IMG/VR virus record: IMGVR_UViG_3300019459_001231
Location: 3,626-67,625 of that record
Source: a virus
Lineage: Duplodnaviria > Caudoviricetes
Reading direction: 5' to 3' (one strand)
DNA: 64,000 nt
Shown: positions 219 to 7,436 of the stretch, piece by piece
Numbering within the stretch: the stretch's first letter is position 1
Layout: every line of letters begins with the position of its first letter
The notes under the pieces: model-generated
What the model was told of the DNA's origin: nothing
The model's input: the letters and a program-made list of their open reading frames with translations, nothing else
The model's database searches: none
Made by a program: the position numbers and the translations under genes

Positions 219-250
219 GGTGTAAAAATATTTACACCTATTTATAAATA
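219..250. promoter_or_regulatory. bidirectional late-type promoter (palindrome TATTTATAAATA, 239-250) next to an 8-bp inverted repeat GGTGTAAA-N4-TTTACACC (219-238)
   Basis: TATAAATA reads on both strands, between divergent genes. Confidence 0.6.
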
Positions 251-260
251 ACAGCGGAGA

Positions 261-731
261 GTGACTATGAAAAAATTGTTATACGCCATATGTGCCTTTT
301 TTATACTGGTGCCTGCGTGTGCAGTAGCTGAATTAACTTGGGGCTTTAAAAGTCCTGCGTTTCACTACGGCAATGGTTACAGTACACATGTACTTAGCGT
401 AGAACAATTACAGTTTAATCGACAAGAAGACCTCCGTAAAGAAGCAGAAGCTGAAGCTGATAGAATAGAACGTGAGTTGGATAATAGTGTATTAAACAAA
501 TTTATACGCAATTTAGAATCACGTATCTATGCTACATTATCAAAACAAATGGTGGACAATATGTTTGCTGAATGTGGAGATACATGTAGTAATACAGGTA
601 CAGCAGAAGTAGAAGGGAATACTATTACGTGGAGCAAAGATCCAACATCAGGCGATATTACATTGATTGTAGATGGTCCAGATGGCTACACAGAAATAAC
701 TATTCCAGGTGCGGGAGACTTTAACTTTTGA
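261..731 (+). CDS. csgF: curli assembly protein CsgF-like
   Basis: Signal peptide, ELTWGFKSPAF N-terminus, FIRNLESRIYATLSKQMVDNMF segment; directly upstream of csgG. Confidence 0.8.
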   Translation: MTMKKLLYAICAFFILVPACAVAELTWGFKSPAFHYGNGYSTHVLSVEQLQFNRQEDLRKEAEAEADRIERELDNSVLNKFIRNLESRIYATLSKQMVDNMFAECGDTCSNTGTAEVEGNTITWSKDPTSGDITLIVDGPDGYTEITIPGAGDFNF

Positions 732-1546
732 TTAGAAAATTAGCAATATTACTCACTTTTATTGCTTTATCTGGATGCTCCGGCTACAACGCAGCCAAGA
801 GTATTAAAGATAATGCAGGACCTGCTAGACTACAAAGTAGTCCGGAACAGATTCGGCTGGATGCTGTGCCTGAACTGGATGGTAAAAAGATAACTATCGC
901 TGTTTACAATTTTATGGATAAAACCGGACAACGTAAACCCAGTGATAGATTAGCAAACTTGAGTAGTGCAGTAACGCAAGGCAGTGAAGTATGGGTAATA
1001 AAAGCACTACAAGATGTAGGTGGTGCAAGTTGGTTTGATGTAGTTGAAAGAGTTGGTTTAGATAACTTGGTCAAGGAACGTCAATTGATACGTAACACCA
1101 GAGAAGTGTATGAAAAAGAAAAATCAACTGGTCCTACTCCGCTCAAGCCTATGTTGTTTGCAGGCTTATTACTAGAAGGCGGTATTGTTGGATACGACAG
1201 TAACGTTGCAATGGGAGGTGCAGGAGCACGTTACCTTGGAATAGGAATGCAGGACGAATATAGAATAGATACAGTGACCGTAGTAATTAGATTAGTAAGT
1301 GTTAGCACAGGTAGAGTAATGTTAAGTGTTGCCACAGAAAAAACTATTGCTAGTTATAGATCAGGTACAGACGTGTTTAAATTTTTAGACCTCGGTACCA
1401 AGATTGTTGAAAGTGAAATTGGTTGGAGTGTCAATGAACCAGTGAACTATGCAGTGAGAGCTGCAATAGAAGCAGGGGTGGTTGAAATGATCTATGAAGG
1501 CGAGAGAAAAAATTATTGGAAATTCAAACAGTTTGGACAACAATAG
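728..1546 (+). CDS. csgG: curli secretion channel lipoprotein CsgG
   Basis: Lipobox LSGC; IAVYNFMDKTGQRKP, SSAVTQG, WFDVVERVGLDNLVKERQLIR, EGGIVGYDSN motifs. Confidence 0.9.
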   Translation: MIRKLAILLTFIALSGCSGYNAAKSIKDNAGPARLQSSPEQIRLDAVPELDGKKITIAVYNFMDKTGQRKPSDRLANLSSAVTQGSEVWVIKALQDVGGASWFDVVERVGLDNLVKERQLIRNTREVYEKEKSTGPTPLKPMLFAGLLLEGGIVGYDSNVAMGGAGARYLGIGMQDEYRIDTVTVVIRLVSVSTGRVMLSVATEKTIASYRSGTDVFKFLDLGTKIVESEIGWSVNEPVNYAVRAAIEAGVVEMIYEGERKNYWKFKQFGQQ

Positions 1547-1573
1547 TTTAACCAAATAGAGAGTGAACACAAT

Positions 1574-2284
1574 ATGAAAAATTTTATTTTAAGCAGTCTA
1601 CTTATTTTGTTAGTTACACCTGCATTAGCGAATGAGATTTATATAACCCAAGTTGGTGATAGTTTAGATTTAGATATTACACAAGATGGATCTGGCAACG
1701 ATTTTGGTGATAGCACAACAGATGTCGTACTAAATGGAGATGACATGACTTTTGCTATTACACAAACAGGCAACAACAACGACATAGCAGCAGTTATTAA
1801 AGGTGCTACTTACACAGGTACATGGGTATTTACTGGAAATACCAACACTGTTGATTTAAAGTGTAGTAGTGCAAGTGTAGGTAACTGTGAAACTGTAACA
1901 CTAAACATAACTACAACAGGTGACGACAACACATATGATTTTGATATAGGTGAAACTGCTGATGCTGATTCAGCATCAATATCATTTACTGTCACAGGCG
2001 ATGATAATATTGTTAATGCCGCAGTAGATGGTGAAAGTGCTGCAATTACAGTAGTATCAAACAACAGTACTAGCTTGTCAACTAACAGTACAAATGGTGA
2101 TGCAGGAAACGAATTTACCTTTGATATAGACGGTGACGGAAGTACCAACGGACACACAGTTAACCTGACAGTAACCGGCGGTGGCGGTTTTTACGATATT
2201 ACACAAGGCGGTATAAACGACAACACAGTAGACGCAACGTTTACAGGCGATGATCAAGATGTCACTATTAGCCAAACTGACTAG
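1574..2284 (+). CDS. secreted curlin-like / beta-solenoid repeat protein A
   Basis: Signal peptide then ANEIYITQVGD; repeated Q/T-x-G-D/N-N-N motifs; rich in N, D, T, G. Confidence 0.7.
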   Translation: MKNFILSSLLILLVTPALANEIYITQVGDSLDLDITQDGSGNDFGDSTTDVVLNGDDMTFAITQTGNNNDIAAVIKGATYTGTWVFTGNTNTVDLKCSSASVGNCETVTLNITTTGDDNTYDFDIGETADADSASISFTVTGDDNIVNAAVDGESAAITVVSNNSTSLSTNSTNGDAGNEFTFDIDGDGSTNGHTVNLTVTGGGGFYDITQGGINDNTVDATFTGDDQDVTISQTD

Positions 2285-3395
2285 TATATTTTTATTACTG
2301 CCAACTATAGCACTAGCAAATGTTGATGCAGGTGCAATAGGTAAAATTCGTGGCAGTGGTGTATTAGAAAGAAACAATGAAGTAATCGACGGTGATACAG
2401 GTGTTGGCGTGATGAGCATGGACACGGCTGTCACTGCTCGAGGACAAATGCAGATTGACTTTATTGACGACACCCGTGTTGATATCACTGAACACAGCAG
2501 ATTACTAATCGACGAGTTTGTGTATGATCCAGCCAACGGCAAAGCGGCACTAGGACTACGTGCTACTATTGGTACTGTGAGATATGCCAGCGGGCAAATA
2601 GCAAAAAACTTCAAACAAAATGTCAAGATCAGAACACCTAGTGCAACTATTGGTGTGCGTGGTACAGATTTTGTAATGGTTGTTGACGAAGTGGGCGGCA
2701 GTATGATTACACTGTTACCTAGTTGTGACGAAGAGGGTATGTGCTACACAGGAGAGATTGAAGTAGAAACTGATGCAGGGTTTGTAATAATGAATCAAGC
2801 ATTTCAAACTACTATTACAAGCATAAGCAGTCAACCTCCTAGTAAGCCATTGGTACTAGACTTAGATGAAAAGATGATAAGTCAATTATTAATACTGAGA
2901 AAAAAGAAACCATATGACGAAGAAGAAGATGAAATAAGATTACAACGAAGAAAAATGTTTGATTTTTTAGGATTAGACTTCTTAGATTTTGATGCATTAG
3001 ACGTAGATGCACTCACTGACAGTATCGAAGGCATTTGGAAAACACAACTAGATGAAACAGACTACATGTTGGCAGATGTATTATATGACATGCTAGATCA
3101 ACTCAATGCTGCACTTATGGAAATTTTTAAAGACGAACTGCTTAAACAAAACCAAGCCTTTTTTACTGTGAAGAAGGAAGGACTAGATCTTAAATCTGGA
3201 ATATTTTATGAACTACAAGATGATACTCACTTAGTGAGGCGTGAAGACAATGCCGGAGATAACTTTTTTCAATTACGATTAAGTACACTGTACGGTTATG
3301 TATTAGATTTACAACAACAAGATTGGACAATTTATGAATATGATGTCGGGGTTGGTAACAACAACAGTATTACTATTACTCAGCGCACCTACTAG
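2250..3395 (+). CDS. secreted FecR-domain protein
   Basis: Signal peptide (probable start MSLLAK), FIDDTRVDITEHSRLLIDEFVYDP and IRTPSATIGVRGTDF FecR motifs, acidic C-terminal region. Confidence 0.8.
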   Translation: MIKMSLLAKLTSIFLLLPTIALANVDAGAIGKIRGSGVLERNNEVIDGDTGVGVMSMDTAVTARGQMQIDFIDDTRVDITEHSRLLIDEFVYDPANGKAALGLRATIGTVRYASGQIAKNFKQNVKIRTPSATIGVRGTDFVMVVDEVGGSMITLLPSCDEEGMCYTGEIEVETDAGFVIMNQAFQTTITSISSQPPSKPLVLDLDEKMISQLLILRKKKPYDEEEDEIRLQRRKMFDFLGLDFLDFDALDVDALTDSIEGIWKTQLDETDYMLADVLYDMLDQLNAALMEIFKDELLKQNQAFFTVKKEGLDLKSGIFYELQDDTHLVRREDNAGDNFFQLRLSTLYGYVLDLQQQDWTIYEYDVGVGNNNSITITQRTY

Positions 3396-4389
3396 TGCCA
3401 ATGAAATCTATCTCAATCAGATAGGTGACGATGTCACTGTGACTATTACTCAAGACGGCGAAAACAACAAAATTGGTGATTTGAATAACCTATCAAACAA
3501 AGGACTGCTAGGAAGTCTTGGTCCGTCTACATACACTTATACACAAACAGGCAACAACAATACCCTTGGATTTTACAATGCTGATGTAGGAGATAGTAGT
3601 AGCACTCTTACACAAACTGGCGATAATAATGCGGCTGTGATAGACTGCCACGGTGAAGACTGTACAATGAGCATTACACAACTAGGTGACAACAATGATG
3701 CTCACGCTGAAGCTGGTAGTAGTTACAGCGATGATGGCAATACAATAGTAATATACCAAAAAGGTGATTCCAACGAATCGTATGCTGAAGCCGACGGAGA
3801 CAGCAATGACTTAGACAGTTATCAGGAATCAGACAATAACTTTAGCCGTGTTGTAGTATCAGGAAATAACAATGCTGTCAATGCTTGGCAAGGCAAACAC
3901 GATGATAACACTGTAGACGGTGACGAAACTGGTGACCACGAAGTATACTGGACTGTTACAGGCAATAACAATATTCTAGACAGTTATCAAACTGATGAAA
4001 ACAGAGGTGGTGGAGGTGGCGCTGGACATCACATAGCAAATGTTGTAAATGGTGATAACAATGGTGTGACACATACACAAAGAGGTAAAGCAGGACACGA
4101 TGGCTTTATTGAAATACAAGGTGACAACAATGATGTTGAGTTATATCAACGTGGCAATGGCGGTCAACAATGGGCAGACATAGTGCTTACAGGTGATGGG
4201 CATACAGTTGATGCTAGTCAACGTGGAACTATGGGACATTCATTTGAAGTTGATCTCACAAACGGTGGCGGTGCTTATTCAGTGATCAGCAATCAGACTA
4301 CTAATAACACAACCACAAGCAAGACTTACAGCCTGACAGGTATTTGTACTAATGGTAATGGTTGTTCAGTAACTGTGAGTCAAAATTAA
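3334..4389 (+). CDS. secreted curlin-like repeat protein B
   Basis: ANEIYLNQIGD N-terminus shared with protein A; many Q-x-G-D-N-N-x-A-x-x-x-Q curlin-type repeats. Confidence 0.75.
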   Translation: MNMMSGLVTTTVLLLLSAPTSANEIYLNQIGDDVTVTITQDGENNKIGDLNNLSNKGLLGSLGPSTYTYTQTGNNNTLGFYNADVGDSSSTLTQTGDNNAAVIDCHGEDCTMSITQLGDNNDAHAEAGSSYSDDGNTIVIYQKGDSNESYAEADGDSNDLDSYQESDNNFSRVVVSGNNNAVNAWQGKHDDNTVDGDETGDHEVYWTVTGNNNILDSYQTDENRGGGGGAGHHIANVVNGDNNGVTHTQRGKAGHDGFIEIQGDNNDVELYQRGNGGQQWADIVLTGDGHTVDASQRGTMGHSFEVDLTNGGGAYSVISNQTTNNTTTSKTYSLTGICTNGNGCSVTVSQN

Positions 4390-4400
4390 TAAGTAATGTT

Positions 4401-6449
4401 ATGAAAGTTATTACACATTGGACATTGGCATTTGTAACAGTATTGTTGGTAACTGCATTTCACTACAGCAATAACTTTGTTGTAGAAACTGCACGACTCA
4501 AAAGTTTTGACCTCCTACAACAATACGATGAACCTATACAAAGCAGAGACATCGCTATTGTTGAAATAGATGAACATGCTATTGAAAAATATGGACAATG
4601 GCCCTGGAAGCGTGATGTTCTTGCAGATATAATATGGAAACTCAGAGAAGCAGGTGCTGGCATAATTGTGTTGCCCGTACTGTTTAGTGAATATGATAGA
4701 CTAGGCGGTGACCAAGAACTCTTGGAAGCAATCAATGGCAATGGTGTTGTTATTGCACAGAACGGAAGTTTCAGTGCTAATCGTAATGGTGTTCCTAGAG
4801 GTGTTGCTAAGATAGGTGACCCGCTTCCGTTCTTGTTTGAATGGCAAGGCATGCTAGGTCCAATAGCTGAGTTTGGCGAGTATGCAGATGGTGTTGGCGT
4901 ACTAAACACAGTACCAGAGATAGATGGTGTAGTAAGGCGTTTGCCTATGTTAATGCGTATAGGAGAAGATGTTTATCCTGCACTAGCAATTGAAGTTATA
5001 CGTGTTGCTGTTGGAGAACCCAGCTATCAAGTTAAATCAAATGCAGGCGGCATTGACAAAATGCGTGTACCTGGATATCCTATTATACAAACAGATCCTA
5101 ACGCAAGAATATGGTTGCGCTGGAATAAACAGTTCGAGACTATCAGTGCCGCAGAAGAAGAACATTTTTATATGCTGGCAGGTAAAACTGTTATTATTGG
5201 ACCAAGTGCAGATGGTATTAGCGGTATAATTGCAAGTCCAAAAGGCGGACAATACAACTATATGCCTGCGGCTGTATCGTTACAAAATATTATGGATGGA
5301 GACACAATATCTCGTCCGTATTGGGCATTTATTTTAGAATTAGCCACTACATTTAGTATTGGATTCTTGATCGTTATACTTGGACGCTATTCGCCCTATT
5401 GGCTTGCAGGAATCAGCCTAATTGGATTTGCTGGTGGTATTGTATATGGTGTTTGGTATGCATGGACCAATTACTTGTATCTAATAGATGGCACTATGCC
5501 AATAGTTGCAGTAGTACTGGTTGGCTTACATGCAGTGTTTACAAGATTTGTATTAGAGTTCTTTGAAAAGCAAAAGATCAAAAAACAATTTGCTGGATAT
5601 GCATCACCTACAGTTGTGCGTATGTTACAAGAGAATCCTGCACTTATAAAAGACGGTATGAAGAAAGAAGTTAGCATATGCTTCAGTGACTTACGTGGCT
5701 TTACACCACTAGGAGAAAGTTTTGGTGACGATGTAAAAGGGCTAACAAAGATTATGAATGGCTACATGGATGCCATTACACAACCTGTTCTGGACATGGA
5801 CGGAATGATAATCAAGTATATTGGAGATGCTAGTATGCATGTACACAATGCACCTATAGATGATCCTAATCATCCACGCACCGCTGTGCAGTGTGGTCTA
5901 GACATGCTCAAAGCAGTGGAGAAGTTCAATGATAAAATCACCAGTGAAGGTAGGCCACCTGTTGGTATGGGTGCTGGTATCAATACTGGGCTTGGCTATT
6001 TGGGAGAGATGGGAAGTACACAAAGACACAGTTACGATGTACTTGGAGACTCGGTCAGTACAGCCGCTCGTATTGAAAGCAAGTGTAAAGAATACGGATG
6101 TGTATTACTTGTTGGAGATGCGACATACCAACAAACCAAAGACGACTTCTTCTACCTCAAAGTAGATGACCTTGCTGTAAAAGGAAAAACTGTTGGTATT
6201 GGTATTTGGACTGTGTTGGATGATACAATTCCAGCATGGGCAGCGGCACAACGTAAACATCAACAAATGCACGAAGACTACCAAGCACAACGTTTTGACG
6301 ATGCTATTGCCAAGTGTCGTTTATTGCATGATCACTTTGATCACAAGATGGAAGGCTATTACGACATGTGGATAGAACGCTGTGAATATATGAAAACACA
6401 GGATCTACCCTCTGATTGGAATGGAGTTTTTATTGCAACTACGAAGTAA
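4401..6449 (+). CDS. CHASE2-domain class III adenylate cyclase
   Basis: N-terminal TM, CHASE2 (IDEHAIEKYGQWPWKRD, DGVVRRLP), 3 TM helices, cyclase motifs FSDLRGFT, IKYIGDA, GINTG, YDVLGDSVSTAARIE; ORF track starts at 4362, likely ATG at 4401. Confidence 0.92.
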   Translation: MKVITHWTLAFVTVLLVTAFHYSNNFVVETARLKSFDLLQQYDEPIQSRDIAIVEIDEHAIEKYGQWPWKRDVLADIIWKLREAGAGIIVLPVLFSEYDRLGGDQELLEAINGNGVVIAQNGSFSANRNGVPRGVAKIGDPLPFLFEWQGMLGPIAEFGEYADGVGVLNTVPEIDGVVRRLPMLMRIGEDVYPALAIEVIRVAVGEPSYQVKSNAGGIDKMRVPGYPIIQTDPNARIWLRWNKQFETISAAEEEHFYMLAGKTVIIGPSADGISGIIASPKGGQYNYMPAAVSLQNIMDGDTISRPYWAFILELATTFSIGFLIVILGRYSPYWLAGISLIGFAGGIVYGVWYAWTNYLYLIDGTMPIVAVVLVGLHAVFTRFVLEFFEKQKIKKQFAGYASPTVVRMLQENPALIKDGMKKEVSICFSDLRGFTPLGESFGDDVKGLTKIMNGYMDAITQPVLDMDGMIIKYIGDASMHVHNAPIDDPNHPRTAVQCGLDMLKAVEKFNDKITSEGRPPVGMGAGINTGLGYLGEMGSTQRHSYDVLGDSVSTAARIESKCKEYGCVLLVGDATYQQTKDDFFYLKVDDLAVKGKTVGIGIWTVLDDTIPAWAAAQRKHQQMHEDYQAQRFDDAIAKCRLLHDHFDHKMEGYYDMWIERCEYMKTQDLPSDWNGVFIATTK

Positions 6450-6621
6450 GTTTTTCTACTAGTTGCTTGAGCAAATATTCTCTACCTTCTAGAAATTTCC
6501 TAATAGGCTTGTTTGCTTCATACTGGTTAGTGTGTAGTGGTGCATCAGATACACCCTCTACCATTGGATAATCTGCTGGTAATTGCTCAGCTACCTTTAT
6601 TCCTTCTAATATTTTTGTCAT
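6439..6621 (-). CDS. hypothetical protein
   Basis: Short ORF continuing the minus-strand gene chain and overlapping the upstream gene. Confidence 0.4.
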   Translation of the reverse strand: MTKILEGIKVAEQLPADYPMVEGVSDAPLHTNQYEANKPIRKFLEGREYLLKQLVEKLTS

Positions 6622-6922
6622 TGTCTCTCACTTTCTGGTTTTCGATATCGTCTAAATCGATGTCCATTTTTCTGCCTGTCATCTTTTCATATTCTTCTTT
6701 AAATTCTAATACGCTGTTTAACTTTTGTGTTAGACGTATCATATCGTTATCTAACATTCTTATTCTGTCCACTAGGTCTATTAGATCACCCATGGCCGCA
6801 CCTATCACAGGTTTAACCTTTGTTGTTGCCCATACCCAAATATAATATATGAAATATCCAAGTCCTACTGCCGCAACAATAGGAAATCCATACTGGTTAA
6901 CCCAGTCAGCAAACTGACTCAT
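6587..6922 (-). CDS. small membrane protein (YvrJ/holin-like), paralog 1
   Basis: YGFPIVAAVGLGYFIYYIW TM segment followed by coiled coil LVDRIRMLDNDMIRL. Confidence 0.65.
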   Translation of the reverse strand: MSQFADWVNQYGFPIVAAVGLGYFIYYIWVWATTKVKPVIGAAMGDLIDLVDRIRMLDNDMIRLTQKLNSVLEFKEEYEKMTGRKMDIDLDDIENQKVRDNDKNIRRNKGS

Positions 6923-7143
6923 TAACTTTCCTGATCAGATGCTCTTGCAGCTTCGTCTTCTGGATTACATCTAATAAGCCAACCGCTTTCGTTAACAATA
7001 AAACGATCTCCTGGTTTATACAACCAATTATCTTTACTGCTACCGTCTGCTAATTTTCCCATAACTTCGCCTTCCCAGTCGCCTTTAACTGTAAAGCCTT
7101 TACCGCCAGGCAAGCTGTCGATTGTATAGTCTACCCACATCAT
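6922..7143 (-). CDS. hypothetical protein
   Basis: Abuts the neighbouring gene; RBS-like GGAGAG upstream. Confidence 0.6.
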   Translation of the reverse strand: MMWVDYTIDSLPGGKGFTVKGDWEGEVMGKLADGSSKDNWLYKPGDRFIVNESGWLIRCNPEDEAARASDQES

Positions 7144-7154
7144 AATTTCTCTCC

Positions 7155-7436
7155 TCAGTCTTTACGTGCGTCATCTTTACCCTCGTTGGCGGCAATACGA
7201 TCAACATTGGGTCTCACTCCTAATGCATGACTCATAAGTGCATCAATTTTAACAAGATCATTGTTCATTGTTTGTACACGATTGTCCAAACTTTTAATGA
7301 TACCTGCCAGTGTTTGTACACTTCCTGTAACACCGTCGAGAATAAATTTTATTGTGAGGAAAACTAGGTAGCCAGCAGCACCAGCTGCCGCGATTGGAAA
7401 ACCAACATCTGCAATCAATTTGAATGCATCGCCCAT
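7155..7436 (-). CDS. small membrane protein (YvrJ/holin-like), paralog 2
   Basis: VGFPIAAAGAAGYLVF TM segment followed by LDNRVQTMNNDLVKI; aligns with 6587-6922. Confidence 0.65.
   Translation of the reverse strand: MGDAFKLIADVGFPIAAAGAAGYLVFLTIKFILDGVTGSVQTLAGIIKSLDNRVQTMNNDLVKIDALMSHALGVRPNVDRIAANEGKDDARKD

Follow-up and report, generated by a model that had tools for sequence, protein, structure and literature searches.

A known phage curli module with a pore, two curlins, a FecR-fold protein and a CHASE2 cyclase, and its plausible role as a surface-to-cytoplasm sensor

We analysed a 64,000-nucleotide stretch of DNA (the window), positions 3,626 to 67,625 of the IMG/VR virus record IMGVR_UViG_3300019459_001231 (Duplodnaviria; Caudoviricetes; 67.6 kb, CheckV completeness estimate 23%). 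Six co-oriented plus-strand genes at 261–6449, neighbours of which overlap or lie no more than 30 nucleotides apart, encode a curli secretion pore (CsgF and CsgG), two curlin-like proteins (Cur1 and Cur2), a periplasmic FecR-fold protein and a CHASE2 receptor cyclase. The block is most likely a copy of the published pelagiphage ‘viral T8SS/curli’ (type VIII secretion system) module, carried by an uncultured T4-like marine phage related to phages Melnitz and HTVC008M, and it is plausible that this known module acts as a sensor running from the cell surface to the cytoplasm. An earlier account of this DNA (the preliminary description) had reported six closely packed plus-strand genes against a minus-strand bias, with which the open reading frame (ORF) map and the GC skew agree, the remainder of the window being mostly minus-strand. 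The six gene identities that it assigned all hold by Pfam, with signal peptides or a lipobox in the translations. The features are as follows.

243–250, plus strand: TATAAATA, which fits the T4-type late promoter consensus and lies just 5′ of csgF
261–731, plus strand: CsgF-like protein (Pfam CsgF 5e-10; phrog_35372 4e-47; signal peptide)
728–1546, plus strand: CsgG outer-membrane pore lipoprotein (Pfam CsgG 3e-48; lipobox LSGC)
1574–2284, plus strand: Cur1, predicted secreted CsgA-type β-solenoid subunit with the C-terminal residues VTISQTD (Pfam Curlin_rpt 0.005, below cut-off; fold model; signal peptide)
2250–3395, plus strand: periplasmic FecR-fold protein (Pfam FecR 7e-9; signal peptide, RIN/FecR-like β domain at residues 24–218, acidic linker, long helix, β meander, C-terminal curlin-like strand)
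3334–4389, plus strand: Cur2, predicted secreted curlin-repeat protein (Pfam Curlin_rpt 2e-13; signal peptide)
4362–6449, plus strand: CHASE2/class III receptor cyclase (Pfam CHASE2 6e-39 and Guanylate_cyc 3e-16)
6587–6922, minus strand: small membrane protein, phrog_18771 paralogue 1 (N-terminal transmembrane segment and predicted helical tail)
7155–7436, minus strand: small membrane protein, phrog_18771 paralogue 2

The span of 261–7436 originally given to the module is correct for the operon at 261–6449, while 6450–7436 holds three minus-strand ORFs outside it, although the two phrog_18771 genes there, separated by a 73-residue ORF, do belong to the module. Translation of csgF probably begins at the ATG at 267. 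For the cyclase the likely start is Met14 (about 4401), judging from an alignment in which homologues match only from residue 10–15 on.

Close relatives of the block surfaced only at the protein level, a megablast search against cultured phages giving no match. The nearest cultured ones, both Kyanoviridae, are Methylophilales phage Melnitz, which infects OM43 and has a cyclase 68% identical to that of the window, and Pelagibacter phage HTVC008M (host SAR11; cyclase 47% identical). All six genes occur in identical order as Melnitz gp99–104 and HTVC008M gp014–019, and the GenBank records of both phages already annotate most of the block. Conservation was surveyed from both ends. Relatives of the cyclase are encoded on 391 IMG/VR contigs, from which 80 loci were kept; CsgF, CsgG, Cur1 and FecR were present, in the same order, in all 58 viral loci with at least about 3.5 kb of upstream sequence. 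Anchoring on CsgG instead (best 80 of at least 583 viral matches), the loci with enough flank contained the FecR gene in 54 of 54 cases, the cyclase in 25 of 25 and a small transmembrane paralogue in 23 of 23. A Cur2-type gene always follows the FecR gene and is the size-variable member of the block, at 112 to about 500 residues. These counts bear out the proposal that pore, substrates, FecR protein and cyclase are conserved together as a unit.

Many loci carry unrelated cargo genes between Cur2 and the cyclase. Two of them (L062:7960-9990 and L025:7984-9894) encode at this position an extra protein of ~640–680 residues, which is rich in Gly, Asn, Asp and Thr and has I-K-F as its last residues, as is typical for outer-membrane barrels; the window has none.

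A bacterial origin of the whole block was also considered. Scanning 185,579 species genomes from CsgG gave 29 loci, and every one of these with both FecR and cyclase genes also carried phage genes, so that this origin was rejected. The contig binned as Luteolibacter (L105), for example, is 103 kb long and encodes T4 gp23, a family B DNA polymerase and a ligase. Contigs resembling T4-like phages and carrying the block were likewise seen in a Maricaulis metagenome-assembled genome (MAG; L099), in a Rhodobacteraceae bin (L084, L086 and L090) and in L085, L087, L088, L091 and L092. We treat such loci as mis-binned phage contigs, which leaves no cellular copy of the full block among the genomes searched; arguments for a cellular origin that start from MAG matches should take this into account.

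The preliminary description knew of no characterised system with this architecture and held phage curli operons to be usually incomplete. Neither statement survives the literature, because the exact block had already been published by Wittmers et al. (2022; PMC9599517) from podovirus and myovirus (Podoviridae and Myoviridae) pelagiphages, as HK-CsgF-CsgG-CsgA/B-FecR-CsgA/B followed by an adenylate cyclase, with one or two ‘HK’ genes before csgF and the second CsgA/B often present. The same study found alphaproteobacterial affinities for CsgG, CsgF, FecR and the cyclase, transcripts of the block in Pacific metatranscriptomes and its presence at all 65 GOV2.0 stations; it reported CsgE and CsgC to be absent, and the cyclase and second curlin to be often lacking in podophage versions. 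A partial curli operon, said to be missing csgA/B, had been described before that from pelagimyophages and Melnitz (Zaragoza-Solas et al. 2020, PMC7029224; Buchholz et al. 2022, PMC9004378).

An F-K-S-P-x-F motif near the N-terminus of CsgF resembles the CsgF constriction peptide, and CsgG also matches the NCBIfam CsgG model at 2e-54, below its equivalog cut-off. The nearest genuinely bacterial CsgG sequences are those of Azospirillum lipoferum (48% identity) and Erythrobacter (39%), the csgG loci of which (L098 and L106) are plain csgF-csgG-curlin operons with neither a FecR nor a CHASE2 neighbour.

Cur2 matches the NCBIfam CsgA and CsgB models at 2e-6 and 9e-6, both below cut-off, and cross-matches of ~30% identity indicate that Cur1 and Cur2 are paralogous. 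The fold of Cur1 was modelled with AlphaFold2 (AF2), giving a predicted local distance difference test score (pLDDT) of 82 and a predicted template modelling score (pTM) of 0.78. Among 48,161 Protein Data Bank (PDB) representatives the best match to this model was the CsgA of Pontibacter korlensis (8C50; Z 18.1, 195 residues aligned, 23% identity, root-mean-square deviation (rmsd) 8.8), with generic β-helices of no more than 14% identity ranking below it. Foldseek gave no significant match for Cur1, CsgA emerging only with a wider aligner, and a search of Cur2 against PDB sequences returned nothing useful. On these profile matches and the predicted fold, both proteins are real curlins, and we infer that, as predicted exported subunits, they would form fibres.

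The CsgE gate and the CsgC chaperone gave no Pfam match in the 67.6-kb record (23% complete). The missing CsgE, the usual periplasmic gate, favours a different use of the pore, proposed in PMC7029224 and PMC9004378, in which CsgG/CsgF would be a nutrient or cofactor channel or a pinholin- or secretin-like pore for lysis timing, with the curlins as accessories; the adjoining small transmembrane proteins are indeed holin-like in size and layout. However, alphaproteobacterial curli operons equally lack CsgE, two intact CsgA-type proteins predicted to be exported are conserved in every locus, and an outer-membrane pore alone cannot depolarise the inner membrane. Melnitz infections proceeded without clumping, though lysis control was likewise not tested there. 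Repurposing of the pore in this way is therefore distinctly unlikely.

The FecR-fold protein (381 residues) was modelled by AF2 from a 30-sequence alignment (pLDDT 73). The model consists of a signal helix, a confidently predicted β domain (28–200) followed by a floppy acidic linker, a long helix (271–306), a β meander (311–366) and 14 disordered residues at the C-terminus. Residues 55–218 match the periplasmic signalling domain of the anti-sigma protein PupR (6OVK; Z 15.2, 130 residues aligned, rmsd 2.5). Furthermore, residues 24–119 match 5IX9 (Z 9.9, rmsd 2.3, 73 of 76 residues, 23% identity), the structure of RIN, which is a periplasmic domain in the adhesin MpIBP of Marinomonas; in the reasoning of its authors, the size of RIN bars it from the TolC pore, so that the adhesin stays anchored (PMC5550230). 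From the model, the phage protein may work like a plug, though not as a member of the LapA/MpIBP module. The C-terminal meander resembles single-layer β sheets such as OspA, at Z values of 6–7 that are not distinctive.

The family ends in a motif, G-x-G-x-N-x-I-x-I-x-Q, that is kept throughout the 30-sequence alignment, with Gln378 invariant and Ile374 and Ile376 present in at least 90% of the sequences. A C-terminal Phi-x-Phi-x-Q strand is common to the FecR protein, Cur1 (which ends D-V-D-I-T-Q-S-D) and Cur2 (which ends VTVSQN). The matches listed in a homologue search with the FecR protein were close phage relatives and gave no bacterial context, and its family profile returned nothing useful against PDB sequences.

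The preliminary description placed the block behind a late-type promoter, and a TATAAATA consensus match does stand at 243–250, the sole plus-strand copy within the window; on both strands together 10 copies occur where 5.7 would be expected, and 2 of 100 shuffles reach this number. The strength of this call is limited by the spacing, only about 10–17 nucleotides separating the match from the csgF start codon. Such a tight gap would make for a very short leader, and TATAAATA is treated here as a mere consensus match. A second copy lies on the minus strand at 239–246, in palindromic overlap with the first, and the intergenic stretch 239–250 may hold divergent late promoters for csgF and for a minus-strand gene starting near 170. 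A scan of the block for sigma-70 promoters and terminators gave results at chance level.

The small membrane proteins (93 and 111 residues) each begin with a hydrophobic helix and continue into a polar tail that is probably helical. Their genes lie just 5′ of csgF in most loci and beyond the cyclase in this window and in L092. By position, number and size they seem to correspond to the genes that Wittmers et al. (PMC9599517) call ‘HK’. Neither Pfam (up to E 10) nor NCBIfam gave a match of these proteins to a kinase domain, for which 93–111 residues are too short. No Pfam, NCBIfam or PADLOC family could be assigned, a lead to YvrJ being weak, and the nearest Atlas clusters are all viral and unnamed.

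In PMC9599517 FecR is interpreted as an iron-dependent regulator, and the published reading of the block is that of a fibre system with transcriptional regulators, in which FecR responds to iron and the cyclase and ‘HK’ control the curli genes, as cAMP (cyclic AMP) and CsgD do in enterobacteria. The co-location and co-conservation of the block genes are consistent with this. Several features argue otherwise. The signal peptide of the FecR protein directly precedes the β domain, leaving no cytoplasmic anti-sigma domain, and neither the block nor the record encodes an extracytoplasmic function (ECF) sigma factor, a TonB-dependent transducer, CsgD or a CRP-type protein. Moreover, the block stands behind a match to a phage late promoter, the ‘HK’ proteins are without a kinase domain, and the cyclase carries a periplasmic CHASE2 sensor that PMC9599517 does not mention. 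A regulatory role of this kind is unlikely on this evidence.

The cyclase comprises an N-terminal hydrophobic segment, the periplasmic CHASE2 domain, a membrane block at about 320–401 and a class III cyclase domain. Its active site was compared by alignment to solved adenylate cyclases and among 60 distinct phage sequences. The metal-binding residues D443 and D489, together with K485 and R570, are invariant in all 60. In the window, five of the six catalytic residues are present (D443, K485, D489, D559 and R570), and position 566, that of the transition-state Asn, is Ser; the site spans 5688–6059 (residues 443–566), and the corresponding positions were compared in L002–L082. This Y-D...V-S pattern (Asp559/Ser566) is found in 58 of the 60 phage cyclases, the window included. 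HTVC008M and L064 have Y-S/T...V-N instead, and the bacterial CHASE2 cyclases described below have Asn566 in 20 of 20 cases and Ser or Thr559 in 19 of 20 (one Arg). The alignment therefore indicates a coupled Ser-to-Asp and Asn-to-Ser change of the active site in most of the phage clade.

It follows from this change that the domain might be a weak or non-catalytic scaffold, or might make a product other than cAMP; the confinement of Ser566 with Asp559 to the phage sequences, against Asn566 in the bacterial ones and HTVC008M, speaks for this, as does the generic homology to Pycsar cyclases. Yet neither of the metal-binding Asp residues varies, nor do the Lys and the Arg, and Lys with Asp is the canonical adenine-specifying pair of class III cyclases. 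Conservation within the block is also highest in the catalytic domain (mean p-distance 0.23), which points to a selected enzymatic function. We consider a weak or altered cyclase very unlikely; given this conservation, the phage domain is expected to be an enzyme. Its predicted product is cAMP.

FecR and CHASE2 genes occur side by side in bacteria. A CHASE2 histidine kinase accompanies an RR-LysM/FecR gene cluster in Burkholderia (PMC5192318), and Campylobacterota have a cluster of CHASE2 adenylate cyclase, FecR, phosphodiesterase and TPR genes (PMC9239204). In S. meliloti, the CHASE2 cyclases CyaD1, CyaD2 and CyaK respond to a plant protein via the outer-membrane barrel NsrA (PMC13001267). 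The FecR/CHASE2 clusters support the earlier suggestion that FecR and CHASE2 look like a signal-relay pair.

Alphaproteobacteria were sampled for comparison. CHASE2 was present in 134 of 301 genomes, and 20 CHASE2 loci from 20 genomes were fetched (L115–L142). All 20 cyclases are homologous to that of the phage over the full length (E 1e-65 to 1e-112). At ten of the loci the cyclase gene adjoins a pair encoding an ATP-binding cassette (ABC) exporter and HlyD, that is, type I secretion. Six loci encode a giant Big_9/cadherin/RTX protein of 1,000–3,400 residues with an N-terminal FecR domain, and one further locus has a small FecR ORF. One of the giant proteins has an N-terminal domain that shares 33% identity (E 1e-18) with the phage FecR domain. 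Examples among the sampled loci are listed below.

L121:901-9604
L127:327-12267
L135:10223-15793
L138:3754-12909

No paper containing both ‘CHASE2’ and ‘type I secretion’ was found, and these loci may represent an undescribed adhesin-to-cAMP signalling arrangement in bacteria.

Pairwise distance matrices were compared across 40 distinct loci. The known partners CsgF and CsgG gave a rho of 0.80. The FecR protein correlated with CsgF and CsgG (rho 0.63–0.74) and with the CHASE2 and transmembrane parts of the cyclase (0.65–0.69; CHASE2 0.65), whereas the pore correlated with CHASE2 at only 0.35, CHASE2 with its own catalytic domain at only 0.37, and the two curlins, the genes of which flank that of FecR, with any other part at no more than 0.39. 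Partial correlations remained high for FecR with CHASE2 when the pore and catalytic domain were controlled (0.60), and for FecR with CsgF/G when the cyclase was controlled (0.54–0.67), neither being reached by any of 500 permutations, which ignore shared ancestry. With FecR controlled, that between CHASE2 and CsgG fell to −0.23, the pore-to-CHASE2 values being zero or below. This hub-like pattern is supportive of a protein that needs compatibility with both the pore and the sensor.

Alternatively, two independent functions might merely neighbour each other in a variable island, namely curli fibres (for aggregation, ‘sibling capture’ or a superinfection shield) and a separate auxiliary gene for cAMP synthesis with a FecR partner of its own, with no physical coupling. 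Podophage versions often lack the cyclase and second curlin (PMC9599517), the cargo inserted after Cur2 is variable in many loci, neither FecR nor CHASE2 occurs in true bacterial curli operons, and in two loci (L027 and L028) the five-gene curli and FecR block is inverted as a whole relative to the cyclase, all of which would fit such independence. In contrast, the FecR gene lies between both curlin genes, overlaps both and stays with them on inversion; its divergence tracks CsgF/CsgG as strongly as CHASE2; the FecR protein and the curlins share the C-terminal strand motif; and co-occurrence in the sampled myophage loci is 100%. Two uncoupled functions are rather unlikely in the light of these points.

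The reading that we prefer, and to which we assign a probability of about 0.5, is that the block joins fibre export to an envelope sensor, from pore and fibre through FecR and CHASE2 to cAMP. Late in infection, the CsgG/CsgF pore would be installed and the curlins exported, putting fibres on a host without curli of its own. The folded N-terminal domain of the FecR-fold protein would not fit through the pore, so that this protein would be retained in the periplasm, much as has been suggested for the RIN plug of type I secreted adhesins, and its curlin-like C-terminal strand would tether it to pore or fibre. Through contact of its FecR domain with CHASE2, the cAMP output of the cyclase would come to depend on the condition of the pore or fibre (assembly, load or cell contact); the FecR-fold protein may also replace the missing CsgE gate. 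As to origin, the FecR/CHASE2 pair seems to have come from alphaproteobacterial adhesin-secretion loci and to have been joined to a curli operon of alphaproteobacterial type.

Several observations weigh against this coupling of fibre export to a cAMP signal. Fibre export would not strictly depend on the cyclase, because some published podophage versions lack it (PMC9599517). The stretch that matches RIN and the FecR-fold region overlap, and a shared β-sandwich may be all that this match reflects. The FecR tail aligns end-to-end with the Cur1 C-terminus in hhalign at E 0.0013 with a probability of only 18%, a weak match, and Pfam Curlin_rpt is the top match for two of five isolated FecR tails at sub-threshold values (E 0.004 and 0.036); the similarity of tail and curlin sequences is a consistent hint, not proof. 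With the FecR gene placed between those of the pore and the cyclase, linkage decay alone predicts a similar divergence pattern. The equivalent Asn-to-Ser mutation in a mammalian cyclase lowers turnover, and by analogy Ser at 566 could lower the activity of the phage enzyme. Finally, a cAMP output would have no known target, because no cyclic nucleotide monophosphate (cNMP)-binding protein is encoded in this record (23% complete) or in the complete genomes of Melnitz and HTVC008M; two cNMP-binding proteins were found in one Pelagibacter MAG and none in another.

A more specific version of the fibre-to-cAMP reading places the FecR N-terminal domain under the CsgG pore, touching CHASE2, with the C-terminal strand built into the fibre. 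Although this arrangement is rather unlikely, if it were true the block would be a contact or load sensor for aggregation, superinfection or particle attachment, its cyclic-nucleotide signal would adjust host metabolism or lysis timing, and the same logic would apply in many Alphaproteobacteria, type I secreted giant adhesins replacing curli.

The carriers of the block are very abundant ocean phages of SAR11 and OM43, and the window adds a further intact copy of the described module. Curli-free hosts would acquire from it a novel structure on their surface and perhaps a further second-messenger input. Should FecR/CHASE2 read the state of the pore or fibre, this would be a first mechanistic handle on CHASE2 receptors, the ligands of which are largely unknown, and would mean that a phage senses the cell surface during late infection.

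Among known systems, Pycsar pairs a PycC cyclase with a cNMP-activated effector; the block shows only a generic PycC homology of the catalytic domain (1e-14) and no other PADLOC match. With FecIRA-type signalling it shares the periplasmic FecR/CCSSD fold (Pfam 7e-9; PupR 6OVK), but the N-terminal cytoplasmic anti-sigma domain and transmembrane helix are replaced by a signal peptide directly before the β domain, and no ECF sigma factor or TonB-dependent transducer is found among the module genes. With the LapA/MpIBP-type retention module it shares a RIN-like periplasmic β-sandwich (5IX9). That module retains a giant RTX substrate of an ABC/membrane fusion protein (MFP)/TolC exporter, whereas the phage protein is Sec-exported and the block is without ABC or MFP genes.

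The domain layout of the cyclase is that of the CHASE2 receptor cyclases (CyaD1/CyaK type), with full-length homology to 20 bacterial members. The Burkholderia and Campylobacterota pairs resemble the phage block in encoding an exported FecR-domain protein beside an inner-membrane CHASE2 receptor, and S. meliloti CyaD1/D2/K in that the signal arrives through an outer-membrane protein. These three differ from it in having no link to a curli pore and an output that may be a kinase, and no mechanism is established for any of them. The alphaproteobacterial type I secretion loci follow the same logic of secretion system, repeat-protein substrate, FecR domain and CHASE2 cyclase; they differ in using type I rather than type VIII secretion and in fusing FecR to the giant substrate, the FecR protein of the phage being separate and Sec-exported.

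Like the canonical curli system of E. coli (csgBAC/csgDEFG), the block has a CsgG lipoprotein pore, CsgF and a predicted secreted β-solenoid subunit of CsgA type. Alphaproteobacterial curli operons have the closest cellular CsgG and the csgF-csgG-curlin order and, as in the phage block, are without CsgE, CsgC and CsgD, but no FecR-domain gene or CHASE2 cyclase lies beside csgG in the loci examined. The closest system is the viral type VIII secretion system of pelagiphages (PMC9599517), which has the same genes in the same order, plus the small genes called HK there. The window shares with it the csgF-csgG-curlin adjacency, the FecR gene, second curlin and cyclase that follow, and the marine phage carrier, and differs in that its small membrane genes lie 3′ of the cyclase on the opposite strand instead of 5′ of csgF. 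The earlier papers (PMC9599517, PMC7029224 and PMC9004378) do not mention CHASE2, a sensor-pair reading, a resemblance to adhesin plugs or the active-site switch; in PMC9599517 the word CHASE2 occurs 0 times and no trans-envelope sensor model is offered. To an architecture that is already known, the present analysis adds the parallel with adhesin loci, the plug-like fold, the shared C-terminal strand, the hub-like divergence of FecR and the active-site switch, as leads for experiments.

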